This document shows positions 457 through 51,980 of a stretch of DNA of 64,000 nt, piece by piece. The DNA is from Berkelbacteria bacterium GW2011_GWE1_39_12 (GTDB lineage: Bacteria; Patescibacteriota; UBA1384; UBA12157), in contig CP011213.1 of the NCBI GenBank assembly GCA_001029735.1, forward strand, positions 848,298 to 912,297, in the 5' to 3' direction. Position numbers and translations under genes: made by a program. Under the pieces are notes generated by a model. That model was not told the origin of the DNA, did no database searches, and was given only the letters and a program-made list of their open reading frames with translations. How positions within the stretch are numbered: position 1 is the stretch's first letter; every line of letters begins with the position of its first letter.

Positions 457-570
457 ATGAAGGTTAGACCATCAGTTAAAAAAATTTGCCAGAAGTGTAA
501 AGTAATCCGAAGAAAAAATGTTATTCGGGTAATTTGTCAAAATCCAAAACACAAACAACGTCAAGGTTAA
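457..570 (+). CDS. rpmJ: 50S ribosomal protein L36
   Basis: 37 aa ORF below the track cutoff: [37 protein letters not shown]. Classic L36 zinc-ribbon sequence between infA and rpsM. Confidence 0.85.
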
Positions 571-585
571 TAACAGGAGTACCAT

Positions 586-972
586 ATGGCCCGTATTGCC
601 GGAGTAAACATCCCAGACAACAAACATGTAGAATATTCACTACCCTATATCAATGGGGTTGGTCTTTCGTTAGCTAAGAAAATCTGTGCTCAAGCAAACG
701 TGAAGTGCGGCACCAAAGTTTCCGATCTCACCACAACTGAAATTGACCGAATTCGCGAAGTTATCGATAAAAATTACAAGGTTGAAGGCGATTTGAAAAT
801 GGAAATCGCTCAAAATATTAAACGCTTAAAAGCAATCAGTTCATACCGCGGTTTAAGACACATGCGTAATTTGCCGGTTCACGGCCAACGCACTAAGACA
901 AATGCTCGCACAAAACGCGGCAAGAAAGTCACTGTTGGATCAGGCCGCAAGAAATCGGCTGAAAAGACATAA
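586..972 (+). CDS. rpsM: 30S ribosomal protein S13
   Basis: [10 protein letters not shown]...YRGLRH...; AGGAG RBS; conserved alpha-operon position. Confidence 0.95.
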
Positions 973-1413: not shown

Positions 1414-2018
1414 TGGCTGGAAATGCTTGTCGAGAATGTCGCAAATTTGGTGAAAAATTATTTGTAAAAGGCGAACGCTGTGTCGGCCCAGGTTGTGCTT
1501 TGACTCGAAGAGTCAATGCACCTGGTACTTCTGGCAGTGCAAAAGCAGGCCAGTCAAGACGCCGCAAGAAATCTGAATATGGTATTCAGCTTCAAGAAAA
1601 GCAAAAAGCTAAATTCACTTATGGTATGCGAGAACGACAATTCCGTGCAGTTTACGAAAAGGCTGTTCGGGTTGGTGGTGTTACTGGTGAAGTTATGTTG
1701 CAAAACTTGGAACGAAGACTTGATAATATTCTTTACCGAGCAGGACTTGCATCGTCAAGACCACAGGCCAGACAAATGGTTGGCCATGGTCATGTTAAAA
1801 TTAACGATAAATTAGCCGATATTCCTTCAATGTTAGTTAACATTAAAGATGTTATTACTTTAACCAAGCCGGAATTAGCAGATGACAAAAATAAAGTTGT
1901 CGCTCCTGCCTGGATGAAAGTTAATAAAATGCAGGTCGAAATTAAAGCTTTCCCAAGACGTGAGGAAATTGAAACTCCGGTCGACGAACAATTAATTGTT
2001 GAATATTATTCAAGATAA
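1413..2018 (+). CDS. rpsD: 30S ribosomal protein S4 (Cys4 zinc-finger type)
   Basis: MAGNACRECRKFGEKLFVKGERCVGPGC... plus S4 domain. The ATG at 1413 overlaps the rpsK stop; the longer ORF start at 1383 is rejected. Confidence 0.9.
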   Translation: MAGNACRECRKFGEKLFVKGERCVGPGCALTRRVNAPGTSGSAKAGQSRRRKKSEYGIQLQEKQKAKFTYGMRERQFRAVYEKAVRVGGVTGEVMLQNLERRLDNILYRAGLASSRPQARQMVGHGHVKINDKLADIPSMLVNIKDVITLTKPELADDKNKVVAPAWMKVNKMQVEIKAFPRREEIETPVDEQLIVEYYSR

Positions 2019-2043
2019 CAAAAATATTAATATGGAGGTCCTT

Positions 2044-2856
2044 ATGGACTACATTTTACCAGAAACAAATTTAGTACAAATCAAAACCATGGAAAAACTT
2101 GGCAATAACGGACTTTTCGTTATTGAACCTTTGAGCCCAGGTTATGGCGTAACATTAGGCAACTCACTTCGAAGAGTATTGCTTTCTTCATTGGAAGGCG
2201 CAGCCATTACTTCAGTTAAGATTGATGGCGCTACTCATGAATTTGCCACCTTGCCAGGTGTCAGAGAAGACGTAGTTGAGATCATTTTAAACTTAAAATC
2301 ACTTCGTTTCAGAATGCACACTGACGAACCTGTAACCATGAAACTTTCGGTTAAGGGTCCAAAGGAAGTTAAAGCTGGTGATTTTGACAAAAATTCATCT
2401 TGCGAAGTTGTCGACGGAGAAGCTTTTATTGCTTCAGTTGGCAAAACTGGCAAATTGAGCCTTGAAGTCGTAGTTGAACGCGGTCGTGGCTATGTTCCGG
2501 TTGAACGACGCCGTGATGAAAAAATGCCATTAGGCACCATCGCTGTTGACTCGGTTTTTACTCCAGTTAAGAAAATTCATTATGAAGTAGAAAATACCCG
2601 TGTCGGCGGAATGACCAACTTCGATAAATTAACTTTAGAAATTGCTACTGATGGTTCAATTGATCCTGAACAAGCTCTTGAAAAAGCTTCAGGTATCTTA
2701 GTAGAACATTTGTCTTTAATGCAAAAAGCGTTCACCAGTGAAGAACCGGTTTTAGCACTTAAAGTAAAAAAGGCTAAGAAAGAACCAAAAGAAGAAGTTG
2801 AAGCCCCAGTTGAAGAAAAGAAAACCGTTAAAAAACCTGCCAAGAAAACCAAGTAA
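2044..2856 (+). CDS. rpoA: DNA-directed RNA polymerase alpha subunit, NTD only with a K/E-rich tail and no recognisable alpha-CTD
   Basis: MDYILPE...LFVIEPLSPGYGVTLGNSLRRVLLSSLEGAAITSVKIDG... is the alpha NTD. GGAGG 6 nt upstream of ATG 2044. The C-terminal ~50 aa are low-complexity (KKAKKEPKEEVEAPVEEKKTVKKPAKKTK). Confidence 0.9.
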   Translation: MDYILPETNLVQIKTMEKLGNNGLFVIEPLSPGYGVTLGNSLRRVLLSSLEGAAITSVKIDGATHEFATLPGVREDVVEIILNLKSLRFRMHTDEPVTMKLSVKGPKEVKAGDFDKNSSCEVVDGEAFIASVGKTGKLSLEVVVERGRGYVPVERRRDEKMPLGTIAVDSVFTPVKKIHYEVENTRVGGMTNFDKLTLEIATDGSIDPEQALEKASGILVEHLSLMQKAFTSEEPVLALKVKKAKKEPKEEVEAPVEEKKTVKKPAKKTK

Positions 2857-2894
2857 TCAATTTTGATTTAAACGAGTTAAATTAAGGAACATAG

Positions 2895-3383
2895 ATGAGA
2901 GCATTATCAAGAAAAAAAGCCAGTAGAGAATCACTTTTACGGAATTTAGCCACTTCCTTGGTTTTATATGAGCGAATTGAAACCACTGAAGCCAAGGCAA
3001 AAGAAGTAAAACCAGTTGTTGAACATCTTATCGCTCTTGCAAAGAAAAACGATTTAGCCGCCCGCAGACGACTTTTGGGATACTTTTTCGACAAAAATGC
3101 GACCAAGAAAGTATTGGAAGTATTAGTACCAAGATTCGCCAATCTGCAGAGTGGTTTTATTAAATCATACCGCAAAGGAGTTAGATTAGGCGACGGCGCT
3201 ATGATTATGATTTTGGAATTACGAAAAAGTGAAATTAAAGAAGAAATTAAAGAATTAAATACAGAAGGTAAAGATGGAACAGAAAAACATGCAAAAGCCA
3301 CAAAGCCAGCCGACAAAGAAGTCGGAGCTAAAGGCAACGCAGCAAACAATTCAAAACGAACCAAAGCCAACACAGCCAAATAA
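2895..3383 (+). CDS. rplQ: 50S ribosomal protein L17 with low-complexity C-terminal extension
   Basis: MRALSRKKASRESLLRNLATSLVLYERIETTEAKAKE... L17 core. The 3' ~110 nt overlap the rplM ORF in another frame. Confidence 0.85.
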   Translation: MRALSRKKASRESLLRNLATSLVLYERIETTEAKAKEVKPVVEHLIALAKKNDLAARRRLLGYFFDKNATKKVLEVLVPRFANLQSGFIKSYRKGVRLGDGAMIMILELRKSEIKEEIKELNTEGKDGTEKHAKATKPADKEVGAKGNAANNSKRTKANTAK

Positions 3384-3732
3384 AAAAATTGAGACCAAAG
3401 AATTTGACGCAGCTGGTCAAGTCGTTGGAAGATTAGCAACCGAAATTGCCGATACTCTTCGTGGTAAGAAGAAACCATCTTTCAGACCATATTTATCAAT
3501 GGGTGATAAGGTTGTTGTTAACAACGCTTCAAAAATTGTCTTAACCGGCAATAAAGTTGAGCAAAAAGTTTATCATCACCATACTGGTTATCTAGGCCAT
3601 CTTAAAACAGTTACAGCCAAAGAATTGATGGTTAAGAACCCTGGTGAAATCCTAAAGAAAGCCGTTTACGGAATGTTGCCAAAGAACAAGCTTCGTGATG
3701 GCTGGATGAAGAACTTAACGATCAATAATTAA
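3274..3732 (+). CDS. rplM: 50S ribosomal protein L13 (N-terminal Q/P/K-rich extension; start uncertain 3274 or 3289)
   Basis: Core ...AGQVVGRLATEIADTLRGKKKPSFRPY...LTGNKVEQKVYHHHTGYLGHLK... is L13. There is no canonical start between the rplQ stop (3383) and the conserved core, so an in-frame upstream ATG is required. Confidence 0.8.
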   Translation: MEQKNMQKPQSQPTKKSELKATQQTIQNEPKPTQPNKKIETKEFDAAGQVVGRLATEIADTLRGKKKPSFRPYLSMGDKVVVNNASKIVLTGNKVEQKVYHHHTGYLGHLKTVTAKELMVKNPGEILKKAVYGMLPKNKLRDGWMKNLTINN

Positions 3733-3756
3733 CCCTTCACAGGATAAAGGAAATAT

Positions 3757-4170
3757 ATGCCAAAAGAGATTACAGAAATAAAAGAAACAATCGTCAAATC
3801 CAAAAACTACTGGTATGCTTTGGGACGCAGAAAAACTGCTATTGCCAAGGTAAAGTTAGTCAAAGGAACTGGCAAAGTAACTGTTAACGACAAAGAATTG
3901 GCCCAACCAAGCCGAGTTTATCTCGAACCGTTAAAGGTTACCGGCAAAGATAAAGAATTAGACATTTTTGCTAAGGTTTACGGTGGTGGCACAGTGGCTC
4001 AATTAGATGCAATCCGTTTAGGAATTGCTCGAGCCTTAGATAAATTCGATGGCGAACTCCATAAAACGTTAAAAGTTGAAGGTTTCCTTACTCGTGACGG
4101 AAGAATGAAAGAACGAAAGAAACCAGGTCTCAAAGGCGCTCGTAAGGCTCCACAATGGGCAAAACGTTAA
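3757..4170 (+). CDS. rpsI: 30S ribosomal protein S9
   Basis: ...YWYALGRRKTAIAKVKLVKGTG...GGGTVAQLDAIRLGIARAL...KAPQWAKR C-terminus typical of S9. Confidence 0.95.
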   Translation: MPKEITEIKETIVKSKNYWYALGRRKTAIAKVKLVKGTGKVTVNDKELAQPSRVYLEPLKVTGKDKELDIFAKVYGGGTVAQLDAIRLGIARALDKFDGELHKTLKVEGFLTRDGRMKERKKPGLKGARKAPQWAKR

Positions 4171-4194
4171 TATTTGTATCGTAGATACACAAAA

Positions 4195-4227
4195 GGGCAC
4201 AGCAATGTGTCTTTTTGTTTTTTTAGT
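4195..4227 (+). terminator. putative intrinsic terminator after rpsI
   Basis: GGGCACA-gcaa-TGTGTCT hairpin (with G-U pairs) followed by a T-rich run. Confidence 0.5.
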
Positions 4228-4272
4228 GAATTTTCCTTTGCAAATTAACCATATATTTGATAAAATATAAAC

Positions 4273-4614
4273 ATGAGCACAAGAAGAGTTGAAAAAGTAT
4301 CTGCCCTTTTAAAAAGAGAGCTTTCAGAGCTAATTAGGAATGATCTTTCAGAACAATTTGGCTTGATTACTATAATGGATATTGATATAACTCCAGATTT
4401 TAAAGATGCGAAGGTTTACATCTCAATTTTTAATACTGAAGAAGAAGATAAAATTTTAAAAACACTCGAAGGAAAAACTCGCGCTTATCAAAAGGTATTA
4501 GGGGATAAGCTAAGAATGAAATTTACTCCTCACCTAACCTTTAAAACAGACAATTACCAAGAAAAAGTTGATCGCGTTGACGAATTATTAAAGGAAATTG
4601 ACCATGGGTCTTAG
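4273..4614 (+). CDS. rbfA: ribosome-binding factor A
   Basis: 113 aa, ...RVEKVSALLKRELSELI...KVYISIF... pattern of RbfA. A TTGCAA-17-TAAAAT promoter-like hexamer pair lies upstream (4238-4266). Confidence 0.75.
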   Translation: MSTRRVEKVSALLKRELSELIRNDLSEQFGLITIMDIDITPDFKDAKVYISIFNTEEEDKILKTLEGKTRAYQKVLGDKLRMKFTPHLTFKTDNYQEKVDRVDELLKEIDHGS

Positions 4615-4975
4615 ATTATACTTATTTAGTCTTTACTCAGTCGCGATTTTATCGTTGGGACTTTGGATTTTATTGATTATTAACGTTAATCCATTTTCCG
4701 CACCTTCTTGGATAATAGTTTTAGTATATACTCTTCTTTTTTGTTTTTTTACTGGGCTATTTGCTATCATTGGTTTTTATTTAAAAGTTTGGTTATCAAA
4801 CCGGGAAGTCATATTTTCCCATTTAATGCCAACGCTTCGACAAAGCGCTTTGATTGCTTTTTCGGTGGTTGGCTTAATCTTCCTGATACAGGTTAAATCA
4901 CTTAATTGGTGGATTGCGTGTTTATTTATAATTGCAGTAATAATGTTAGAATTATTTTTTAGGAGTAAAAAATGA
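4598..4975 (+). CDS. hypothetical polytopic membrane protein (3-4 TM helices)
   Basis: Strongly hydrophobic 125 aa ORF. Its stop overlaps the pheS ATG (ATGA). Confidence 0.5.
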   Translation: MTMGLRLYLFSLYSVAILSLGLWILLIINVNPFSAPSWIIVLVYTLLFCFFTGLFAIIGFYLKVWLSNREVIFSHLMPTLRQSALIAFSVVGLIFLIQVKSLNWWIACLFIIAVIMLELFFRSKK

Positions 4976-5658
4976 AGGGACACTTACACCCACTAACTCA
5001 AATGCTTAGAGTATCATTGAAATATTTTGAAGACAGAGGATTTACAATCGCCGAAGGGCCGGAGATTGAAACAGAATGGTTTAATTTTGATGCTTTAAAC
5101 GTATCTGCGGATCATCCATCCCGAGATGTTCAGGATACATTTTGGTTAAATGACGGGCGTCTACTTAGGACTCATACAACCCCGGTAGATGTAAGAGCTA
5201 TTAAAGAAAGCAACCTGAAACCGCCTTTAAAACTAGTCATTCCTGGGCGATGCTTTAGAAATGAGGCGACCGATAATACCCACCTATACAATTTCTATCA
5301 AATCGATGGAATTGCGATAGGTAAAGATTTAAATTTGAGCGATTTAATCGGTCTTTTAGAAGGCTACGTAAAGGAATTATTCGGCGATACAGTTAAGACG
5401 CGTGTCAGACCTGGTCATTTCTCTTTCGTTGAGCCTGGATTAGAACTTGATATCCAAATGCCGGATGGGTCATGGCGAGAAATGCTGGGCGCTGGCATGG
5501 GCCACCCTAATGTACTAAAAAACATGGATTTAGATCCAAACGAATGGCAAGCTATTATGTGGGGTATGGGTATAGATCGGTATATGATGCAGCAATTTGG
5601 TTTAGACGATATTAGAACCGCATATAATGGTGATTTAAGACTCTTAAAGCAATTTTAA
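4972..5658 (+). CDS. pheS: phenylalanine--tRNA ligase alpha subunit, catalytic core only (lacks N-terminal coiled-coil domain)
   Basis: 228 aa: ...FDALNVSADHPSRDVQDTFWLNDGRLLRTHTTPV...GRCFRNEA... class II motifs. It starts directly at the catalytic domain. Confidence 0.9.
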   Translation: MKGHLHPLTQMLRVSLKYFEDRGFTIAEGPEIETEWFNFDALNVSADHPSRDVQDTFWLNDGRLLRTHTTPVDVRAIKESNLKPPLKLVIPGRCFRNEATDNTHLYNFYQIDGIAIGKDLNLSDLIGLLEGYVKELFGDTVKTRVRPGHFSFVEPGLELDIQMPDGSWREMLGAGMGHPNVLKNMDLDPNEWQAIMWGMGIDRYMMQQFGLDDIRTAYNGDLRLLKQF

Positions 5659-5670
5659 GGATAAAAAATC

Positions 5671-7566
5671 ATGAAAATACTACTCTCTTGGTTAAAAGAT
5701 TATGTACAATTTGATAAATCTGCTGATGAACTTGCCGAAGATCTAAGCATGTTTGCTCATGAAGTCGAATCAATTAAAAAATATGGCGACGATTTTGTCT
5801 TAGATTTAGAAATCACACCAAACCGTGGTGATTGTCTTTCTCATTTAGGCATCGCTCGACAAATTTCTGCCATGTATGATAAAAGCTTGAATATCCCAGA
5901 AATTGAGATTGACGACGTAGAATTATCAAAAAACATTAAAGTCGTTATTGAAAAACAGAGTATTTGTCCTCGATTTACTGCAAGAATTATCGACAATGTC
6001 TCTATTAAAGAATCGCCAAAATGGCTTCAGGAAAGAATTACTGCTTATGGTTTTAGACCGATTAACAATATTGTCGACATAACAAATTACGCGATGATCG
6101 ATGCCGGTCAACCGCTCCACGCCTTTGATTACGACAAGATTAAGTACGGCTTAATGAGAATCCGGCTTTCAAAAGATGGTGAAAAAGTTACAACATTGGA
6201 TGGTAAAGAAAGATTCTTACCAAGCGAAGCCATCATTATTGAAGACGAAGAGAAAATTTTTGACCTAGCTGGCATTATGGGTGGCCAAGCATCTGAAGTC
6301 ACAAACGACACTAAAACAATCGTATTAGTTGGCTCTGTTTTTGATCCAATTTTAATTAGAAGAGCTTCAAAAAAACTTCATCATCAAACTGATGCATCTT
6401 ATCGTTACGAGCGAGGGGTAGATTTCGAAGGTTCCGTGTATGGCGTTAATTTAGCGGCAAATTTGATTAAGGAAACCGCACCCGATGCCGCAGTTGGTAA
6501 ATTAATTGACAAAAAACAAGTCGAATCAGATAAACAAACGGTTGATTTTACTTACGATCAAATTAACCGCTTGATTGGCACAAACCTAGACAAAGCTGCA
6601 ATCGATTCGTATTTAACTAGATTACATTTTAAAGTCGAAAGTGATACTGTGTACGTTCCATCATTTAGATGGTACGATGTAAAAATTTGGCAAGATTTAG
6701 CCGAAGAGGTAGCAAGAGTATTTGGTTATAATAGTATTTCTAGAAATACTCCTGCGCTGGCTACTAATATTACACAAAACAAAGAATGGATGAAAAGAGA
6801 ATCGGCTAAAGATTACTTAAAAGAAAAAGGCTTTACCGAAGTTTATGCAACATCTTTTTCAAACAAGGATAAAATTGTTTTACTAGGTTATAACTTAGAG
6901 AATTGTGTAAGAATCATTAACCCAATTGCACCGGAAACTGAGTTTTTAAGACCGAGCCTTTCTGTGTCGCTGCTTTCTGCAGCCGCTAAAAATCCTTGGT
7001 CGCCTGATTTGAATATTTTTGAAGTTGCTAAAGTGTTTGATATAAAAAAAGAATATTGGCAAATTGGTATTCTTTCGGCTGGGAAAAATACCAAAACTTT
7101 GCAAGAAATAATCAATGGCTTAAACGTAAAAGCTCAAGTCGCACAAGTTGACCAAAACATCCTTGATGCGTTTAAAATTCGAAGACCAATCAATATGGTA
7201 ATTTTCAATTCAGACGAACTTCCTGAAAATAATCAAGAAATTAATTATGAAGTCTCACAAAATAAATTACGAGATATTTCAAAATTTGCACCGACAATCA
7301 GAGATATTTCTATTATAGTTAACGCTGACATTGAGTCAAATGAGATAGAAAAAGCGATTACAGCGGCATCTAGCGCCGTGCTTTTCGCAGAAAAGTTTGA
7401 TGAATTTGTTTCAGACAAATTTGGTTTAAATAAAAAAAGTTTAGCATTTCATATTTGGCTTCAGAACAAAACAGATGTCGTATCTGAATCTGAGGCAAAT
7501 AATGAGATAGATTGTATTGTAAAATCGTTACAAGCTTCATTCAAAGCTGAACAAAGAACTCAATAA
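5671..7566 (+). CDS. pheT: phenylalanine--tRNA ligase beta subunit (short form)
   Basis: 631 aa with B1 and B3/4 domains (...LDLEITPNRGDCLSHLGIARQ...). It follows pheS. Confidence 0.9.
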   Translation: MKILLSWLKDYVQFDKSADELAEDLSMFAHEVESIKKYGDDFVLDLEITPNRGDCLSHLGIARQISAMYDKSLNIPEIEIDDVELSKNIKVVIEKQSICPRFTARIIDNVSIKESPKWLQERITAYGFRPINNIVDITNYAMIDAGQPLHAFDYDKIKYGLMRIRLSKDGEKVTTLDGKERFLPSEAIIIEDEEKIFDLAGIMGGQASEVTNDTKTIVLVGSVFDPILIRRASKKLHHQTDASYRYERGVDFEGSVYGVNLAANLIKETAPDAAVGKLIDKKQVESDKQTVDFTYDQINRLIGTNLDKAAIDSYLTRLHFKVESDTVYVPSFRWYDVKIWQDLAEEVARVFGYNSISRNTPALATNITQNKEWMKRESAKDYLKEKGFTEVYATSFSNKDKIVLLGYNLENCVRIINPIAPETEFLRPSLSVSLLSAAAKNPWSPDLNIFEVAKVFDIKKEYWQIGILSAGKNTKTLQEIINGLNVKAQVAQVDQNILDAFKIRRPINMVIFNSDELPENNQEINYEVSQNKLRDISKFAPTIRDISIIVNADIESNEIEKAITAASSAVLFAEKFDEFVSDKFGLNKKSLAFHIWLQNKTDVVSESEANNEIDCIVKSLQASFKAEQRTQ

Positions 7567-34930: not shown

Positions 34931-34933
34931 GTT

Positions 34934-35197
34934 CTAGCAATCTATGTCAGGCGAGACTTGGCCTGTTTTATAGCGCAAATAGATAGTGGTTATTAATCCA
35001 ATCAGTAATAATGCTGACATTATAATTAATATAATTTTATTTTTCCGTGTGAACGCATTTTCTTTTATCGCAATCTGTTCGACGATAAAAACGAGTGCAA
35101 TAACAATAGTTACAGATCCTAACCCCCAGCCAATCCAGTTAATTATCAACAGCCATAATGGCGGCGTAAATATGCATTTCATAGTTGTATTATTCAT
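34934..35197 (-). CDS. small hypothetical membrane protein (87 aa)
   Basis: Three hydrophobic helices; weak evidence beyond ORF length. Confidence 0.35.
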   Translation of the reverse strand: MNNTTMKCIFTPPLWLLIINWIGWGLGSVTIVIALVFIVEQIAIKENAFTRKNKIILIIMSALLLIGLITTIYLRYKTGQVSPDIDC

Positions 35198-35242
35198 TAA
35201 GTCTCCTTGTTCAAATATATTTTACCATCTTTTTTGAGTTTT

Positions 35243-35268
35243 AAAAAACCGGGCAATTAACCCGGTTT
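35243..35268. terminator. bidirectional intrinsic terminator
   Basis: AAAAAA-CCGGGC-aattaa-CCCGG-TTT; serves the 35278..36042 gene on the minus strand. Confidence 0.65.
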
Positions 35269-35277
35269 GAGGAACTA

Positions 35278-36042
35278 TTAGCTCATGATGATCTCGGCCG
35301 CTCTCTTGAGGACGAGGATCTTTTCTGTGATGCGATCCGATGTCTCAAGCGCATTGAGATCGACAGCTATATCTTCCCGCTGAAGATCCTCGATCTCCGT
35401 CAACAGCTGGTTAATTGCCAGCTCACGGGTAAGGATTTGATTGGCAATGGCCTGCTTAGTATCCAGCGCCATTTGTGCATTAGTTGCCAAAGCTTCTGAC
35501 AGCTCAGCGATTCTACGATCAATTGAAGCAGTCGGTGATTCGACAACAACGACAGCCATTTCAACAACCGTTTCCGGCGGCTCCTCCACAGGAGCTTGTT
35601 CGGCTGGAGGTTCAACTGGAGCAGGCGGTTCGGTTGATTCAACCGGCGGCTCGACCGTATCGGTAGGAGCAGGCGGCACCACGTCTGTTTGCGTGGACTT
35701 GGCCGTCTTTGGCTTCTTAGGCAATTGGCTCGCCTTCACCGTCTTGATTTCGATTGGCGTGTCGCCGAAGAATGCAACGAGATCTATGACATCGCCGTTA
35801 CGATAGGCTTCGCCGTTGATTAAAACTTCGGCAGCATCTAGCCGGAGCTTGGCGTAATGCTTGATCAACTTATAACTGCTTCTAACATCGGGCTCATGCT
35901 CGATGAAGCCGCCCTTGCGCAGGTATGTCATGTAAACCGAAATGTTGCCTCGGGTCTTTTGTGTGATCACCATCAGAGCGTCCGTGTCGACCAGCCCGTA
36001 TTTATCGAACTTGAGCTGATTACCCAATGCACTGTAGAGCAT
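35278..36042 (-). CDS. hypothetical protein with central proline-rich linker and C-terminal coiled coil; higher-GC islet (start chosen at internal Met 36042, just downstream of the sigma-factor stop)
   Basis: The longer ORF (to 36258) overlaps the sigma gene by ~200 nt in another frame. MLYSALGNQLKFDKYG... start removes the overlap. Contains PPAPTDTVEPPVESTEPPAPVEPPAEQAPVEEPPE linker. Confidence 0.45.
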   Translation of the reverse strand: MLYSALGNQLKFDKYGLVDTDALMVITQKTRGNISVYMTYLRKGGFIEHEPDVRSSYKLIKHYAKLRLDAAEVLINGEAYRNGDVIDLVAFFGDTPIEIKTVKASQLPKKPKTAKSTQTDVVPPAPTDTVEPPVESTEPPAPVEPPAEQAPVEEPPETVVEMAVVVVESPTASIDRRIAELSEALATNAQMALDTKQAIANQILTRELAINQLLTEIEDLQREDIAVDLNALETSDRITEKILVLKRAAEIIMS

Positions 36043-36061
36043 AATACCAGTGGGAGTAATT

Positions 36062-37288
36062 TCATCCGTTACATCGTTTGGTAGCGGAGACAACGCCGGA
36101 TTTGATCCAGCGTCTGGAATGAACGGGGGAACACTCGGCCATATTGATCGGCTTGTGCTTTTCCACGGTGCCGATACCAACAATAGCCAAGACTGATACT
36201 TTGCTGTCATCAAATTCAACTGTGGTGACAGGTCCTCTGGAGACATTGTAACCTCCATGATGAATCACCAGGTCCTTTTCGATAAGTATCTCCAGACTAC
36301 CTGTCACATCATCAGGCCTCATCTTGCAGGCGTTTGCCGCTCTACTGATGGCTAGTAACACCACTTCAGACGAAGCGGTCAGTTGATAGATATGCGCTAA
36401 TAAGGTTAATGACTTAGCGCGAAGAACTGGTATCTCTCTGATTTCTGTCGATTCCACTACTTTTCCTACCCTTCCTTCCGGTTTTACCGGAATATCCGTC
36501 GATCGAACTACTTCATGATCTGAGTCATCTAGAAGTTCTTTCAGTCGTTTCAACGCTTTGTCTTGCAATCTGCTGACATGCATTTGACTGATACTGAGAA
36601 TTTCAGCCACTTCCGCTTGAGGTTTATCCTCAAAAAAACGGAGATAGATAATGCTCTTCTGGCGTTCATCAAGACATTCGATGGAGTGAAAAAGATCTCC
36701 GTAATTGTCTTGATTCGCAATACCAGGATCAAGTTCTCCCATGAATTCAGCGAGCGTTAAAGCAGTTGATTCACCATCGGAGCCCAGAGCGGTATCCAAC
36801 GATACTGTTTCGTAGGCGTTTCCCATCTCCATTGCAGCTAGAGTATCTTCTTCACTTGCGCCAACTGCTTCAGAAACTTCTTCAACCGTCGGCGCCCTTC
36901 CCAGACTCTGGCTAAGATTTTCGGAGACCTTGTTACAAGCCCAGTTCAGCTCCTTCAGTCGTCTTGGAACCTTTAAACTCCATTTTTTATCCCGAAAATG
37001 CCGTCTGATCTCTCCAACAATGGTAGGTGTTGCAAAGGTTGAAAATACAGTACCTCTTTCTGAGTCATATCTATCGACTGCGTGAATCAATCCTATCATT
37101 CCGACCTGGATCAAATCATCTAACGGCTCCCCCCGGTTCGCGAATTTTCCCGCTAAGAAACGAACAAGACTCTGATGCATCAAAACCAACCTGTCCCTAG
37201 TCCTCTGATCTCTGTTTTGTGCATAAGATCTCAACAATCTCTGTTCTTCCTCTTTGCGGTCTTGCAGGCAGCGATTTGCTTTCCTCAT
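36062..37288 (-). CDS. group-3 (SigB/FliA-like) RNA polymerase sigma factor with ~160-aa C-terminal extension; higher-GC islet
   Basis: Region 2 (...DLIQVGMIGLIHAVDRYDSERGTVFSTFATPTIVGEIRRHFRD...) and region 4 (...YLRFFEDKPQAEVAEILSISQMHVSRLQDKALKRLK...), followed by an unassigned 160-aa tail. Confidence 0.75.
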   Translation of the reverse strand: MRKANRCLQDRKEEEQRLLRSYAQNRDQRTRDRLVLMHQSLVRFLAGKFANRGEPLDDLIQVGMIGLIHAVDRYDSERGTVFSTFATPTIVGEIRRHFRDKKWSLKVPRRLKELNWACNKVSENLSQSLGRAPTVEEVSEAVGASEEDTLAAMEMGNAYETVSLDTALGSDGESTALTLAEFMGELDPGIANQDNYGDLFHSIECLDERQKSIIYLRFFEDKPQAEVAEILSISQMHVSRLQDKALKRLKELLDDSDHEVVRSTDIPVKPEGRVGKVVESTEIREIPVLRAKSLTLLAHIYQLTASSEVVLLAISRAANACKMRPDDVTGSLEILIEKDLVIHHGGYNVSRGPVTTVEFDDSKVSVLAIVGIGTVEKHKPINMAECSPVHSRRWIKSGVVSATKRCNG

Positions 37289-37378
37289 TTCTTTTCACCT
37301 GCTTTCCTTGAACCTATTTTTCAAACACCGATATTTTATCATTAAAATATTTTTTTGTAAAGATTATCAAGGCTGACA

Positions 37379-37446
37379 TTGACATATTCGCGTTTTTTCG
37401 ATATAGTTGTAATTGAGATGGTAAGTTATTAAACTTACCTTTTTTT
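37379..37446 (+). promoter_or_regulatory. consensus-like promoter (TTGACA-17-TATAGT) immediately followed by intrinsic terminator hairpin (GGTAAGTT-atta-AACTTACC + T7)
   Basis: Promoter hexamers at 37379-37384 and 37402-37407; terminator 37420-37446. Would give a ~30-nt transcript or act as an insulator/attenuator. Confidence 0.4.
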
Positions 37447-37447
37447 A

Positions 37448-37512
37448 TATCCTAAGGATACAAGCTCCGCTTATACCCGAAGGATACAAACTTGATTTAT
37501 ATCCGAAGGATA
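37448..37512. promoter_or_regulatory. array of three 13-bp palindromes TATCC-N3-GGATA (TATCCTAAGGATA, TACCCGAAGGATA, TATCCGAAGGATA) at exact 26-bp spacing - putative operator array
   Basis: Direct reading; each palindrome is embedded in a conserved ~20-nt unit TTATAYCCKAAGGATACWA. Located between the divergent sigma-factor gene and the nusA promoter. Confidence 0.5.
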
Positions 37513-37520
37513 CTAGCGAT

Positions 37521-37570
37521 TTGACAAAATTTATCAATATAATACAATAAATGTAAAGTTAAGTTTACAT
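37521..37570 (+). promoter_or_regulatory. putative nusA promoter (TTGACA ... TACAAT) and downstream 20-bp palindrome ATGTAAAGTTAAGTTTACAT in 5' UTR
   Basis: -35 at 37521-37526, -10 at 37543-37548 (16-nt spacer). Palindrome 37551-37570, 24 nt before the nusA ATG. Confidence 0.4.
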
Positions 37571-37593
37571 TAGAGAATTAAAGGAGTCCCCAA

Positions 37594-38811
37594 ATGGCAA
37601 TTTCACCATTTATGGCAGCAATCAATCAATTATGTGACGAAAAAAGTCTTTCAAAAGACACGATTTTAGAAACCATCGAAGCCGCGATCGCCGCCGCTTA
37701 CAGAAAAGATTATGGTGAACCTAGCCAAATTGTTAAGGCAAAAATGGACGAAGAAACTGGCGAGGCGAAGTTCTGGCAGGTTTTTGATGTCGTGGAAGAA
37801 GTCGAAGACCCAGAGTCTCAAAAGACATTAGATGAAGCCAAAAAAATTGATAAAAAAGCCAAGCTTGGTGAACAAGTTGAAATCGAATTGGAGACTCATT
37901 CTGAATTCGGACGTATTGCCGCTCAAACTGCTAAACAGGTTATTACTCAGCGTATTCGCGAAGCAGAACGAGATATGCTCTTTACCGAATTTAAAGATAA
38001 AGAAGCTCAATTAATCAACGGCACGATTCAACAAATTGAAAGTGGCAACGTTATTATCGATTTGGGAAAAATCAACGGTATTATGCCACCATCAGAACAA
38101 ATTTCAAATGAAAAATATTATTCTGGCCAAAGAATTAAAATTTTTGTTAAAGCAGTTGAAGAAACCAGTCGTGGTCCAAAAATTTTAGTTTCAAGATCAG
38201 ACGCAGGTTTGGTTGAAGGCCTTTTTGAAAATGAAGTCCCTGAAATAGCCGCCGGATCAGTTGAAATTAAGGGAATTGCCAGAGAAGCCGGCAGCCGTAG
38301 CAAGGTTTCAGTTTTTACTTCCCAAGAAGGACTGGATCCAGTAGGCTCATGTGTGGGTCAGCGCGGTACCCGTATCCAAGCAGTTTTAGCTGAACTACCA
38401 GAAGAAAAAATAGATATTATTCTATGGAATGCAGATGAAAAACAGTATATAATTAATGCTCTTTCACCAGCAAAGGTGGACAAAGTTAAGCTCAGTAAAG
38501 AAGAGCAACGTGCCATTGTTTATGTTCCAGATGATCAACTTTCATTAGCCATTGGAACTGGCGGACAAAATGTTCGACTCGCCAGCAAATTAACCGGTTG
38601 GAGCTTAGACATTGAAAAAACTGACGAAGCTACAGAAAAAGAAAAAACAGAAGCAGTAGACGAAGAACCAAAAGAAAAAATTGCAAAGCCAAAAAAAACC
38701 AAAAAGAATAAAAAAGAAAAAGATGCTGAATTGCCAGAAGACTCAGCTATTAATACAGAAACTCCTATGGCTGAGACCGGCGATTTAGACGAAATCGCCA
38801 CCAATGAATAA
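37594..38811 (+). CDS. nusA: transcription termination/antitermination factor NusA with acidic/lysine-rich C-terminal tail
   Basis: NusA N-domain, S1 and two KH domains (...GSCVGQRGTRIQAV...). Confidence 0.9.
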   Translation: MAISPFMAAINQLCDEKSLSKDTILETIEAAIAAAYRKDYGEPSQIVKAKMDEETGEAKFWQVFDVVEEVEDPESQKTLDEAKKIDKKAKLGEQVEIELETHSEFGRIAAQTAKQVITQRIREAERDMLFTEFKDKEAQLINGTIQQIESGNVIIDLGKINGIMPPSEQISNEKYYSGQRIKIFVKAVEETSRGPKILVSRSDAGLVEGLFENEVPEIAAGSVEIKGIAREAGSRSKVSVFTSQEGLDPVGSCVGQRGTRIQAVLAELPEEKIDIILWNADEKQYIINALSPAKVDKVKLSKEEQRAIVYVPDDQLSLAIGTGGQNVRLASKLTGWSLDIEKTDEATEKEKTEAVDEEPKEKIAKPKKTKKNKKEKDAELPEDSAINTETPMAETGDLDEIATNE

Positions 38812-45147: not shown

Positions 45148-45546
45148 TTATTGCAGAGAACGAAATGCTTTCTCTGCAAGCTCTAGACTTATTTGTGCGG
45201 CGTGATAGCGCAGAAATGTACCTTTGTCACGCAGGTACTCATCCTGCCACTTCGCACTATTGACAAGGTCGTTTTTCACCTGATCGGCCATTTTGGACTT
45301 TTCAGTTGAGTCTTCCGCCATGATGGCGTTAAGGCTCAAGCCTTTCCGAGAAACTCGATCGGTAGTTGTCGCTTCGACATTATATACTCGGAATGATTCG
45401 GCTCGGTAACTTTCCGAGAGCTTAATCATTGCCTCGCTCTCTGCTTGAAACTGCCCGATGACCTGGTGCTGTTTGAAGATTGTCGTACCAATCACCAGCA
45501 CGACCATCAACAGCCACAATTTCCACAGACTTAACAGCTCTGCCAT
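45148..45546 (-). CDS. hypothetical membrane-anchored protein (132 aa); higher-GC islet; preceded by duplicated structured leader
   Basis: N-terminal TM helix (LWKLWLLMVVLVIGTTIF) then soluble domain. AGGAGG RBS inside the conserved leader. Confidence 0.5.
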   Translation of the reverse strand: MAELLSLWKLWLLMVVLVIGTTIFKQHQVIGQFQAESEAMIKLSESYRAESFRVYNVEATTTDRVSRKGLSLNAIMAEDSTEKSKMADQVKNDLVNSAKWQDEYLRDKGTFLRYHAAQISLELAEKAFRSLQ

Positions 45547-51185: not shown

Positions 51186-51210
51186 TTAAAAAGGCCCGCT
51201 TAGCGAGCCC
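51186..51210 (-). terminator. intrinsic terminator of the 51210..51980 gene (GGGCTCGC-uaa-GCGGGCC + U5), overlapping its stop codon
   Basis: Read on the minus strand. Confidence 0.6.
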
Positions 51211-51980
51211 TATTCATTTGAGAGTGTTCTAATACGATAGACCTTTTGCGCATTGCGCAGCTGTTCTTCGTCGTTGATTCCCAGCGCTTCCTCAGGATCT
51301 TGAAGACGAAATTCCGAAACACCGCCGTTTTCCATAAAGTGATAGAGAGCTGAGTTTATGGTTTTCTCTCTCTTAGACGTGACATGGGTAATGCTCTGGA
51401 TTGCCTGCGCTAGCATTTCCCGACGGAAGATAAACATCGATGGGTTAACATCGCGGATTACTGCAGCCTCGGGTAGAGGATCTTCGGGTTCGAAGATACC
51501 AAGGATATTGCCGGCGGCATCTTTGGCAATTCGGCCGTATCGACGAGTACTGTGTTCGTCCCATTTTTCAGCACATATACTCATCATGGACATGTTCTTA
51601 CCAGAGTCAAGATGATGTTTGGCGAACTCTTTGAGTGTTGACGATCGCCACAATGCCATGTCACCGAAGAGCACCATCACATGTTCAGTATTAACATACT
51701 CCAGTGCCTGTAAAACTGCCGGTGCCGTCCCAAGCCGCCGTTCTTGAATCACCACTGTTGCGTCAGATGGCAGAAACGGCATTATCTGGCTAGCAAAGAG
51801 AGGATTAAGCACTACAACTGCTTCATGCATTCCCGCACCATAAACTGCGTTCATCAGAACCTCGATCATTGGCTCAGCTTCTCTTATTTCTGCCAATAAC
51901 TTCGATATGCCAGAATTTACAGGAATCTGACCGTAGCCGGCCGCGGTAATTATTGGAGTGACATATTTTCTAATCATCAC
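51210..51980 (-). CDS. sugar-phosphate nucleotidyltransferase-like protein (NTP_transferase fold); higher-GC
   Basis: N-terminal ...ITAAGYGQ... glycine loop and overall size (256 aa). Weak pattern. Confidence 0.5.
   Translation of the reverse strand: MMIRKYVTPIITAAGYGQIPVNSGISKLLAEIREAEPMIEVLMNAVYGAGMHEAVVVLNPLFASQIMPFLPSDATVVIQERRLGTAPAVLQALEYVNTEHVMVLFGDMALWRSSTLKEFAKHHLDSGKNMSMMSICAEKWDEHSTRRYGRIAKDAAGNILGIFEPEDPLPEAAVIRDVNPSMFIFRREMLAQAIQSITHVTSKREKTINSALYHFMENGGVSEFRLQDPEEALGINDEEQLRNAQKVYRIRTLSNE

Follow-up and report, generated by a model that had tools for sequence, protein, structure and literature searches.

Group 3 sigma factors of the SigB/SigF/SigG type, the family covered by the model TIGR02980, are compact proteins of about 255 amino acids (aa), and their genes lie adjacent to those of an anti-sigma kinase and a STAS protein. 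In sigma factors of the extracytoplasmic function (ECF) class, among them ECF41, ECF42, and ECF56, a C-terminal extension instead stands in for a separate anti-sigma factor (PMC3426412; PMC8999054). Here we describe a locus that is related to the first of these systems by descent and resembles the second in layout. It lies in a 64-kb stretch, hereafter the window, of the 915-kb genome of Berkelbacteria bacterium GW2011_GWE1_39_12, a member of the Candidate Phyla Radiation (CPR), and consists of a 2-kb block (35278-37288) with two minus-strand open reading frames (ORFs) that overlap by 197 nucleotides (nt): a sigma factor gene (36062..37288, 408 aa) and a downstream ORF (35278..36258, 326 aa), whose product we call the partner. 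The block is an import, inserted between wecG and the nusA leader, and in it a group 3 sigma core continues in frame into a long C-terminal tail that matches no other protein. A literature search turned up no account of this protein, and none of an alternative sigma factor in Berkelbacteria or elsewhere among the CPR bacteria.

Several lines of evidence place the first 255 residues of the sigma protein (36524..37288, minus strand) in the SigB/SigF/SigG family. The Pfam models Sigma70_r2, Sigma70_r3, and Sigma70_r4 all score above their cutoffs (44.7 bits for Sigma70_r3), and residues 28-252 score 270 bits against TIGR02980, for which the cutoff is 234.35, so that the core belongs to the family by score as well as by the order of regions 2, 3, and 4. 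A preliminary description of this DNA had named a group 3 sigma factor of the SigB/FliA type with a long extension, and this identification holds, with 153 extra residues in place of the roughly 160 then counted. Regions 2.4 (TPTIVGEIRRHFRD) and 4.2 (ISQMHVSRLQ) are conserved. Among solved structures the core comes closest to 8x6g_H and 1l0o_C, and all matches in the PDB stop at query residue 250-262. In an AlphaFold2 model of the core, the predicted local distance difference test (pLDDT) values of regions 2 and 3 mostly fall between 70 and 90, with lower values elsewhere.

The homologues point to a distant source. The homologue listing comprised 120 proteins, the top one being a fragment of the query itself; the other 119 are 63-68% identical to the window protein, 248-277 aa long, and cover 58-63% of it. 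All seven of these listed homologues whose source carries a phylum name come from Armatimonadota or Armatimonadetes. The homologues are about 257 aa long and end in ...KRLKELLS. Within this clade, 37 members are 73-99% identical among themselves, whereas the window sigma shares 62-66% identity with each member. Of the 138 columns that are invariant in the clade, the window sigma retains 115 (83%), and at the other 23 the substituted residue is mostly a similar one. The core is intact and looks functional, but it stands outside the tight donor clade. At three homologue loci (L002-L004) the sigma gene is preceded by genes for a STAS protein and an HATPase_c_2 protein, that is, a partner-switching pair, and an AI-2E transporter gene comes after it. 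When the STAS and kinase proteins of the homologue loci were compared with the 64-kb window by tblastn, there was no match (best E = 0.7), and the window contains no second sigma gene. The preliminary description had proposed to look for the cognate promoter motif elsewhere in the genome. A scan of the window, which is 7% of the genome, for three promoter patterns (SigB, mycobacterial SigF, and cyanobacterial SigF-like; GTTT...GGGTAT type), with consensuses that come from other phyla, gave either no hits or no excess over shuffled sequences.

The composition of the block is deviant too. At 48.0% GC it is the GC-richest 2-kb stretch of the window, all other 2,011-bp intervals having a mean of 38.5% (sd 2.1, maximum 44.4%); the high-GC islet noted in the preliminary description is therefore real and the richest in the 64 kb, although the figure of about 50% given for it was slightly high. 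GC content at third codon positions (GC3) is 0.348 +/- 0.055 in 54 background genes, with a maximum of 0.534, and is 0.42 in the sigma core and 0.41-0.47 in the tail. The partner is more deviant than the sigma gene, with a GC3 of 0.65 in its N-terminal domain, which is above every background gene, 0.51 in its linker, and 0.53 in its C-terminus.

A scan of the GTDB species representatives with NusA yielded no close relative (at most 50% identity), and a metagenome scan with NusA was used instead. The related contigs that it gave have NusA identities of 85% (L087), 79-84% (L088), 74-76% (L089 and L091), 72% (L092), and 58% (L094), and local tblastn shows that the gene order MurA-MreB-GT4-orf51-orf156-WecG ... 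NusA-ClpC-...-orf494 is conserved in the relatives. What lies between wecG and nusA, which in the window is the region 34931-37378, is not conserved. Two relatives have short gaps free of genes, 208 nt in L092 (1478-1685) and 186 nt in L094 (4275-4460). In L088 the gap is ~0.9 kb (6110-7000) and holds one 185-aa ORF that matches no family; in L087 it is ~2.5 kb (4514-7000) and holds an unknown ORF, a GNAT acetyltransferase, an AAA_33 kinase-like protein, and a 199-aa orphan ORF of 50-61% GC; and in L089 it is ~5.4 kb (1509-6952) and holds an ankyrin protein, an IS200-like Y1 transposase (Y1_Tnp), Dus, and several orphans. In L087, the closest relative, the GC-rich orphan ORF occupies the same position as the window block. 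Tblastn found no sigma, tail, partner, or orf87 (a small ORF beside the block) at this site in six relatives, and when the cargo of the relatives was compared with the window block by blastn and tblastx, the elements of the nusA leader alone matched. Because the site is bare in two relatives and carries unrelated cargo in three, we conclude that it is a hot spot of gene gain and that the window block is one lineage-specific cargo. The deviant composition, the Armatimonadota-like best matches, and the lack of the block at the corresponding position in six relatives agree that it was imported, as the preliminary description had proposed. Thus the block shows the deviant composition, the absence from the site in relatives, and the homologues in a distant phylum that characterize a genomic islet. 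It bears no signature of mobility, as there is no integrase, transposase, tRNA gene, or flanking direct repeat in or next to it.

The block is 100% identical in three other assemblies (two from Logan and one from ENA) that stem from three different samples, over aligned lengths of 7.5-12.8 kb. The ENA contig (99,919 bp, of which 12.8 kb align) spans both junctions of the block at 100% identity. The 408-aa sigma protein is found by exact look-up at NCBI as AKM82779.1 and HBO60137.1. Because the block is identical across assemblies and its junctions are spanned, we dismiss both an assembly chimera and a homopolymer error. By their sequence, all of the data on the block derive from one clonal population. 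The Logan assemblies of two runs (SRR6487450 and SRR3309327; L001 and L086) both end at 36744/36745, a point that separates regions 3 and 4 of the sigma gene and through which Megahit-type assemblies continue without a break. This shared end suggests a branch in the assembly graph, caused by a minor variant or by a k-mer in common with another organism.

Beyond residue 255 the sigma protein departs from the compact architecture of ~250-270 aa that is typical of its family. The tail (aa 256-408 and the stop codon, 36062..36523, minus strand) is coding-like and is fused in frame to the core: all of its 153 codons are open, its GC content at the three codon positions (0.57/0.39/0.41) is close to that of the core (0.55/0.38/0.42), and its codon log-odds in the sigma frame reach +16 to +22 bits. 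Neither the tail nor the partner has a relative in the collections searched. A word-indexed search of 5.8 billion proteins returned for each of them only itself, and an exhaustive phmmer search of 1.84 billion cluster representatives with the partner returned itself, its own fragment, and one low-complexity, proline-rich match. Against Pfam, NCBIfam, PHROG, PADLOC, and the PDB sequences, with an E threshold as loose as 10 when tail and partner segments were scanned separately against Pfam and up to 1 for the others, neither gave anything better than E = 0.05-0.2. Tblastn against IMG/VR, GenBank phages, and PLSDB plasmids gave no match for tail or partner, nor did a comparison with the donor-type loci and the rest of the window. 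Two matches to PDB sequences were set aside: one of tail or partner to amicoumacin kinase (E = 1.9), treated as noise, and one to Cas2 (E = 0.12, 34 residues), which was dropped as no Cas2 Pfam model matched at E up to 10. The preliminary description had also suggested an anti-sigma, STAS, or zinc-finger domain for the tail. This is not what we find, as the tail carries no signature of these domains, no family or PDB match, and no HxxxCxxC motif.

AlphaFold2 places three helices (residues 285-304, 307-320, and 325-337) and two strands (354-360 and 363-368) in the tail at pLDDT 23-56. This predicted order, three helices followed by a beta-hairpin within aa 285-368, may fit a winged helix, and by eye the tail and the N-terminal domain of the partner both show a winged-helix-like pattern, 'L..L.ek.L/F-I/V' plus a beta-hairpin. 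BLASTP and hhalign detect no kinship between the two. The sequence that encodes the tail also contains, on the minus strand, a stable 83-nt RNA hairpin (36225..36307) with 19-nt arms that are complementary at 17 of 19 positions (dG -39.8 kcal/mol, z -3.9). Its loop contains GGAGG-N5-ATG, the start of the long overlapping frame, which by codon statistics is not coding.

In the partner ORF, the first ~40 of the 326 codons are non-coding. A start at ATG 36042 gives a protein of 254 aa (35278..36042, minus strand; NCBI AKM82778.1, UT28_C0001G1004) that begins 19 nt past the sigma stop, which confirms an earlier suggestion that this start would remove the overlap of the two ORFs; Prodigal prefers TTG 36093, which gives 271 aa. 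The earlier outline of the protein likewise proved accurate: an N-terminal domain (35719-36042) is followed by a proline-rich linker (35554-35718) and a helical or coiled-coil C-terminus (35281-35553). In a single-sequence model, made without an alignment, of a conceptual fusion of tail and partner, only the C-terminal helices are confident (pLDDT 71-86). The N-terminal domain has GC contents of 0.53/0.32/0.65 at the three codon positions and a faint Pfam match to HTH_34 (E = 0.17). No Shine-Dalgarno site precedes either TTG 36093 or ATG 36042; the sigma gene, orf87, and nusA each have one. The sigma and partner genes share one interval from promoter to terminator, and the two are probably co-transcribed.

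Near the end of the sigma gene, a run of five cytosines (C5; 36125..36129, minus strand) marks a possible switch of reading frame. If one C is removed, a single ORF of ~669 aa results (...INMAECS-PFIPDAGSNPALSPLPNDVTDEITPTG-MLYS...). Upstream of the run (39 codons) the codon log-odds are +16 to +19 bits for the sigma frame and -3 to -10 for the overlapping frame; downstream (24-25 codons) they are -3.6 to +2.9 for the sigma frame and +1.0 to +4.9 for the partner frame. With the second interval extended to ATG 36042, the partner frame rises to +6 to +13, and the sigma frame, which then includes codons past the sigma stop, drops to between -3 and -12. The last 25 residues of the sigma protein, CSPVHSRRWIKSGVVSATKRCNG, look as if they were read out of frame. 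These observations suggest either that a frameshift broke what was once a fusion gene or that translation terminates here and then re-initiates. All aligned assemblies share the same C5 run. The preliminary description had named, as one outcome that would speak against it, a frameshift showing that the tail belongs to a separate gene of known function. The C5 run does hint that the tail and the partner were once one gene, but no known separate gene has emerged to which the tail would belong.

The unit seems to be equipped with signals of its own. A promoter-like site of the sigma-70 type (TTTACA-17-TAAAAT with a TG extension, 10/12 matches; 37333..37361, minus strand) lies ~45 nt upstream of the sigma start, ATG 37288, and is AT-rich like the host genome. 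A ribosome-binding site, AGGTGA, stands 6 nt ahead of this ATG, and the sequence between the nusA leader and the ATG is AT-rich. On the other side, an intrinsic terminator (35240..35268, minus strand) consists of a AAACCGGGU/GCCCGGUUU stem and a U-run (dG -16.6 kcal/mol, z -3.8). The preliminary description took it to be bidirectional; the hairpin is real, but a proper U-run follows it on the minus strand only, and the terminator is essentially unidirectional. The complex control region that had been drawn as the other boundary of the block is in part the native nusA leader (37379..37593, plus strand), which is conserved in all relatives (among them L087 6840-7003, L088 6795-6960, L089 6800-6960, L091 385-563, and L092 1505-1660), marks the right edge of the insertion, and is not itself imported.

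Based on this evidence, we propose the following history. The GC-rich 2 kb would be a lineage-specific insertion between wecG and the nusA leader, which brought in a group 3 sigma factor of the SigB/SigF/SigG type from an Armatimonadota-like donor. This sigma factor would have arrived without the genes for the STAS anti-anti-sigma factor and the kinase-type anti-sigma factor that precede its homologues in the examined loci of the donor clade. Its stop codon would then have been lost, so that the core now runs in frame into ~130-150 residues without any known relative, and an equally orphan partner made of an N-terminal domain, a proline-rich linker, and a helical C-terminus lies downstream of it. 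For its expression the unit has a putative promoter that is AT-rich and of host type, a Shine-Dalgarno site, and a terminator of its own. Of this history, the import, the fusion, the orphan status, and the intactness of the sigma core are shown by the data. We infer that the sigma protein still acts as an alternative sigma factor. With no partner-switching genes at hand, transcription would set its activity, perhaps together with the fused tail, the partner, or both, by analogy to the ECF sigma factors with a C-terminal extension. If the winged helices are real, the tail and the N-terminal domain of the partner might bind DNA or another protein. We consider this account as a whole to be probable, if only by a modest degree, and the idea that tail and partner regulate the sigma factor, and that the block is in this sense a regulatory module, is offered as a hypothesis. 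A stronger version would have the sigma factor carry a built-in module, consisting of a domain, perhaps of the winged-helix type, that follows region 4 and of a coiled-coil partner, which would replace partner switching by gating the sigma factor in cis or by making a third contact with DNA upstream of the -35 element. The module would have been assembled, in a genome-reduced CPR bacterium, from imported sequence and from de novo or unsampled sequence, and the Armatimonadota-like core would hint at the physical host or neighbor of this Berkelbacterium. We regard this version as improbable.

Several points weigh against the proposed history. The absence of RsbV and RsbW covers just 64 of the 915 kb of the genome, and no SigB/SigF-type promoter is enriched in the window, so that no regulon is visible there. 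The winged-helix idea draws on a pattern of secondary structure and on one Pfam match at E = 0.17, and given the model confidence (pLDDT 23-56 for the tail, below 50 for the N-terminal domain of the partner) roles cannot be assigned to tail and partner. The gap in GC3 between sigma gene and tail (~0.42) and partner (0.53-0.65) suggests that they may not share one origin, and the block may be composite. The block occurs in one clonal population only and therefore offers no evolutionary sign of selection on tail or partner. Finally, the missing Shine-Dalgarno site of the partner, along with the pattern of frames around the C5 run, hints at a longer gene that has been broken.

This last point leads to an alternative that modifies the proposed history rather than replacing it, in which core, tail, linker, and partner once formed a single ORF of ~669 aa that was broken by the insertion of one base in the C run. 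Today the sigma protein would then end in 25 junk residues, and the downstream part would be made only by re-initiation (UGA 36062, AUG 36042) or through occasional +1 slippage, if it is made at all. Deleting one C indeed links ...INMAECS to PFIPDAGSNPALSPLPNDVTDEITPTGIMLYS..., the codon scores past the run favor the partner frame, and the stretch read in that frame is rich in Pro, Ser, and Asp, as a linker would be, whereas CSPVHSRRWIKSGVVSATKRCNG is rich in Cys, Trp, and Arg, as expected of an out-of-frame translation; moreover, both candidate starts of the partner lack a Shine-Dalgarno site. However, the codon signal becomes weak (+1.0 vs. -1.3 bits over 24 codons) once the proline-rich linker is left out of the training set, no homologue with the unbroken form was found, and the jump in GC3 from 0.42 to 0.65 at the junction is a better fit to two genes of different origin. 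The presence of C5 in all aligned assemblies rules out a sequencing error. We think such a broken fusion possible and yet somewhat unlikely. Less likely still, in our view, is that the block is a decaying import without present function, in which the sigma gene, once captured, was deprived of its stop and now runs on into unrelated DNA, what follows downstream is a non-functional remnant, and the whole is neutral, fast-turnover cargo of the hot spot. Each lineage does carry different and partly orphan cargo at the site, including the GC-rich orphan ORF of L087, tail and partner are without relatives, neither a regulon nor anti-sigma genes are visible in the window, and a frameshift may have occurred. 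Decay fits less well with a core that has kept 83% of the clade-invariant residues over 255 codons without a stop or frameshift in spite of ~35% divergence, with the gain of a host-type promoter and ribosome-binding site, and with 153 and 254 codons that stayed open with codon-position structure, the chance of 153 open codons being ~4e-4 by a rough estimate from base composition. In addition, CPR genomes rarely retain 2 kb of useless DNA.

Two further readings have very little probability. The segment could be native, with its GC content due to amino acid constraint, or an assembly chimera, and to this extent other genes of the window reach 47% GC (45148..45546 and 51210..51980) and two Logan contigs stop within the sigma gene at 36744/36745. 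These explanations are already contradicted by the data: both flanks belong to the same low-GC genome and have conserved synteny, the ENA contig crosses both junctions at 100% identity, the proteins are also encoded on contigs of 786,633 and 915,059 bp, relatives lack the block at this site, and the GC3 of 0.65 in the partner exceeds that of all background genes. The block could also be part of a phage or of an antiphage system that uses a sigma-like protein, such as a phage sigma factor or MzaA of the MZA system. The sigma protein does match the phage sigma family phrog_351 at 197 bits, and it has weak matches to MzaA (91.5 bits in NCBIfam and 45 bits in PADLOC). It is nevertheless not MzaA by the full-length model, as 91.5 bits compare with a cutoff of 800 and the match covers generic sigma domains only; PADLOC has no match for the partner, tail and partner are unmatched in IMG/VR, GenBank phages, and plasmids, the genes nearest to that of the core are chromosomal and belong to rsbV-rsbW-sig operons, and neither an integrase nor phage genes are found near the block. 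We find such an origin hardly credible.

Returning to the history that we propose, what is cleanly documented here is a CPR bacterium with an imported sigma factor of the stress or developmental type, a putative host-type promoter, and an orphan fusion. If the tail or the partner does control the sigma factor, C-terminal regulation in cis would extend past the ECF class into group 3, and the locus would show that new regulatory proteins can be built from orphan sequence; should the block prove to be cargo in decay, the islet would be an ordinary one. The wecG-nusA hot spot is a site of gene gain in genomes that are otherwise known for gene loss, and the donor phylum is a clue to the organisms with which this Berkelbacterium lives. 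Of the by-products of this analysis, this hot spot and the peculiarities of the nusA leader are the most reusable.

The leader begins with a strong, near-consensus promoter (37379-37407, plus strand). Within about 10 nt of it follows an 8-bp hairpin with a T-run, GGTAAGTT/AACTTACC (37420-37446, plus strand), in which relatives show compensatory changes, from A-T to G-C in L089 and L091 and from T-A to C-G in L092. A second promoter (37521-37548, plus strand) is followed by the palindrome ATGTAAAG..TTTACAT, just ahead of the ribosome-binding site. Judged by its structure, the leader looks like a terminator or attenuator, or a very small RNA. Autoregulation of NusA via a leader terminator occurs in other bacteria and would fit the leader hairpin seen here. 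A search of 35150-37650, leader included, against Rfam gave no match. Between the leader hairpin and the second promoter lie three tandem 26-nt repeats (37439-37517), each with the palindrome TATCCnnnGGATA. They occur nowhere else in the window, are missing from the leaders of all relatives and thus unique to this genome, and fold strongly together on the minus strand (z = -5.1). These repeats might serve as operators, perhaps bound by a product of the block.

On the other side of the block, directly downstream of its terminator, lies orf87 (34934..35197, minus strand), a small, low-GC ORF for a hydrophobic, putative membrane protein, which has a good ribosome-binding site of its own and a -10 element with a TG extension. 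Since orf87 has no tblastn match in the relatives and the gaps of L092 and L094 are too short for it, we place it in the same variable region but outside the GC-rich block. Upstream of it stands GGTTT-N19-GGTAAA, a loosely SigF-promoter-like sequence that is a single match and was defined post hoc. Elsewhere in the window there are two other GC outliers, a 132-aa ORF without a Pfam match (45148-45546, minus strand; 47.4% GC, GC3 0.53) and a nucleotidyl-transferase gene (51210-51980, minus strand; 46.8% GC), which may be further imports. An element at 514-618 (plus strand) matches Rfam RF00140, the ribosome-binding-site element of the alpha operon, at 38.6 bits, just above the gathering score of 38, and belongs to an ordinary leader of a ribosomal protein operon.

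In comparison with known systems, the sigma protein is a member of the SigB/SigF/SigG group in its regions 2, 3, and 4 and in its above-cutoff score, and it differs from that group in its length, the 153-aa extension having no counterpart in homologues or structures, and in the lack of an anti-sigma kinase and a STAS gene within 64 kb. Nearest to its core are the Armatimonadota-type rsbV-rsbW-sigma operons (P0002, P0009, and others; L002-L004), which share 62-68% identity and the same order of domains; their sigma factors stop at ...KRLKELLS and have STAS and HATPase_c_2 genes upstream and an AI-2E gene downstream, whereas the window copy has none of these neighbors. With genomic islets and hot spots the locus has in common the conserved flanks, the empty or differing cargo, the deviant composition, and the transposase in one relative (L089), but the window copy itself is without an integrase, a tRNA gene, or flanking direct repeats. 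The ECF sigma factors have regions 2 and 4 only, whereas region 3 is present in the window sigma, which matches TIGR02980 best and scores far lower against the generic ECF superfamily model; the extensions of the ECF sigma factors are SnoaL-like, TPR, or zinc-finger domains, whereas the tail described here has no such signature and is not conserved in any other protein. The likeness to ECF sigma factors with a fused domain is thus one of concept, and it consists in the lack of an anti-sigma gene nearby, an extension of ~100-200 aa after region 4, and possible regulation in cis.

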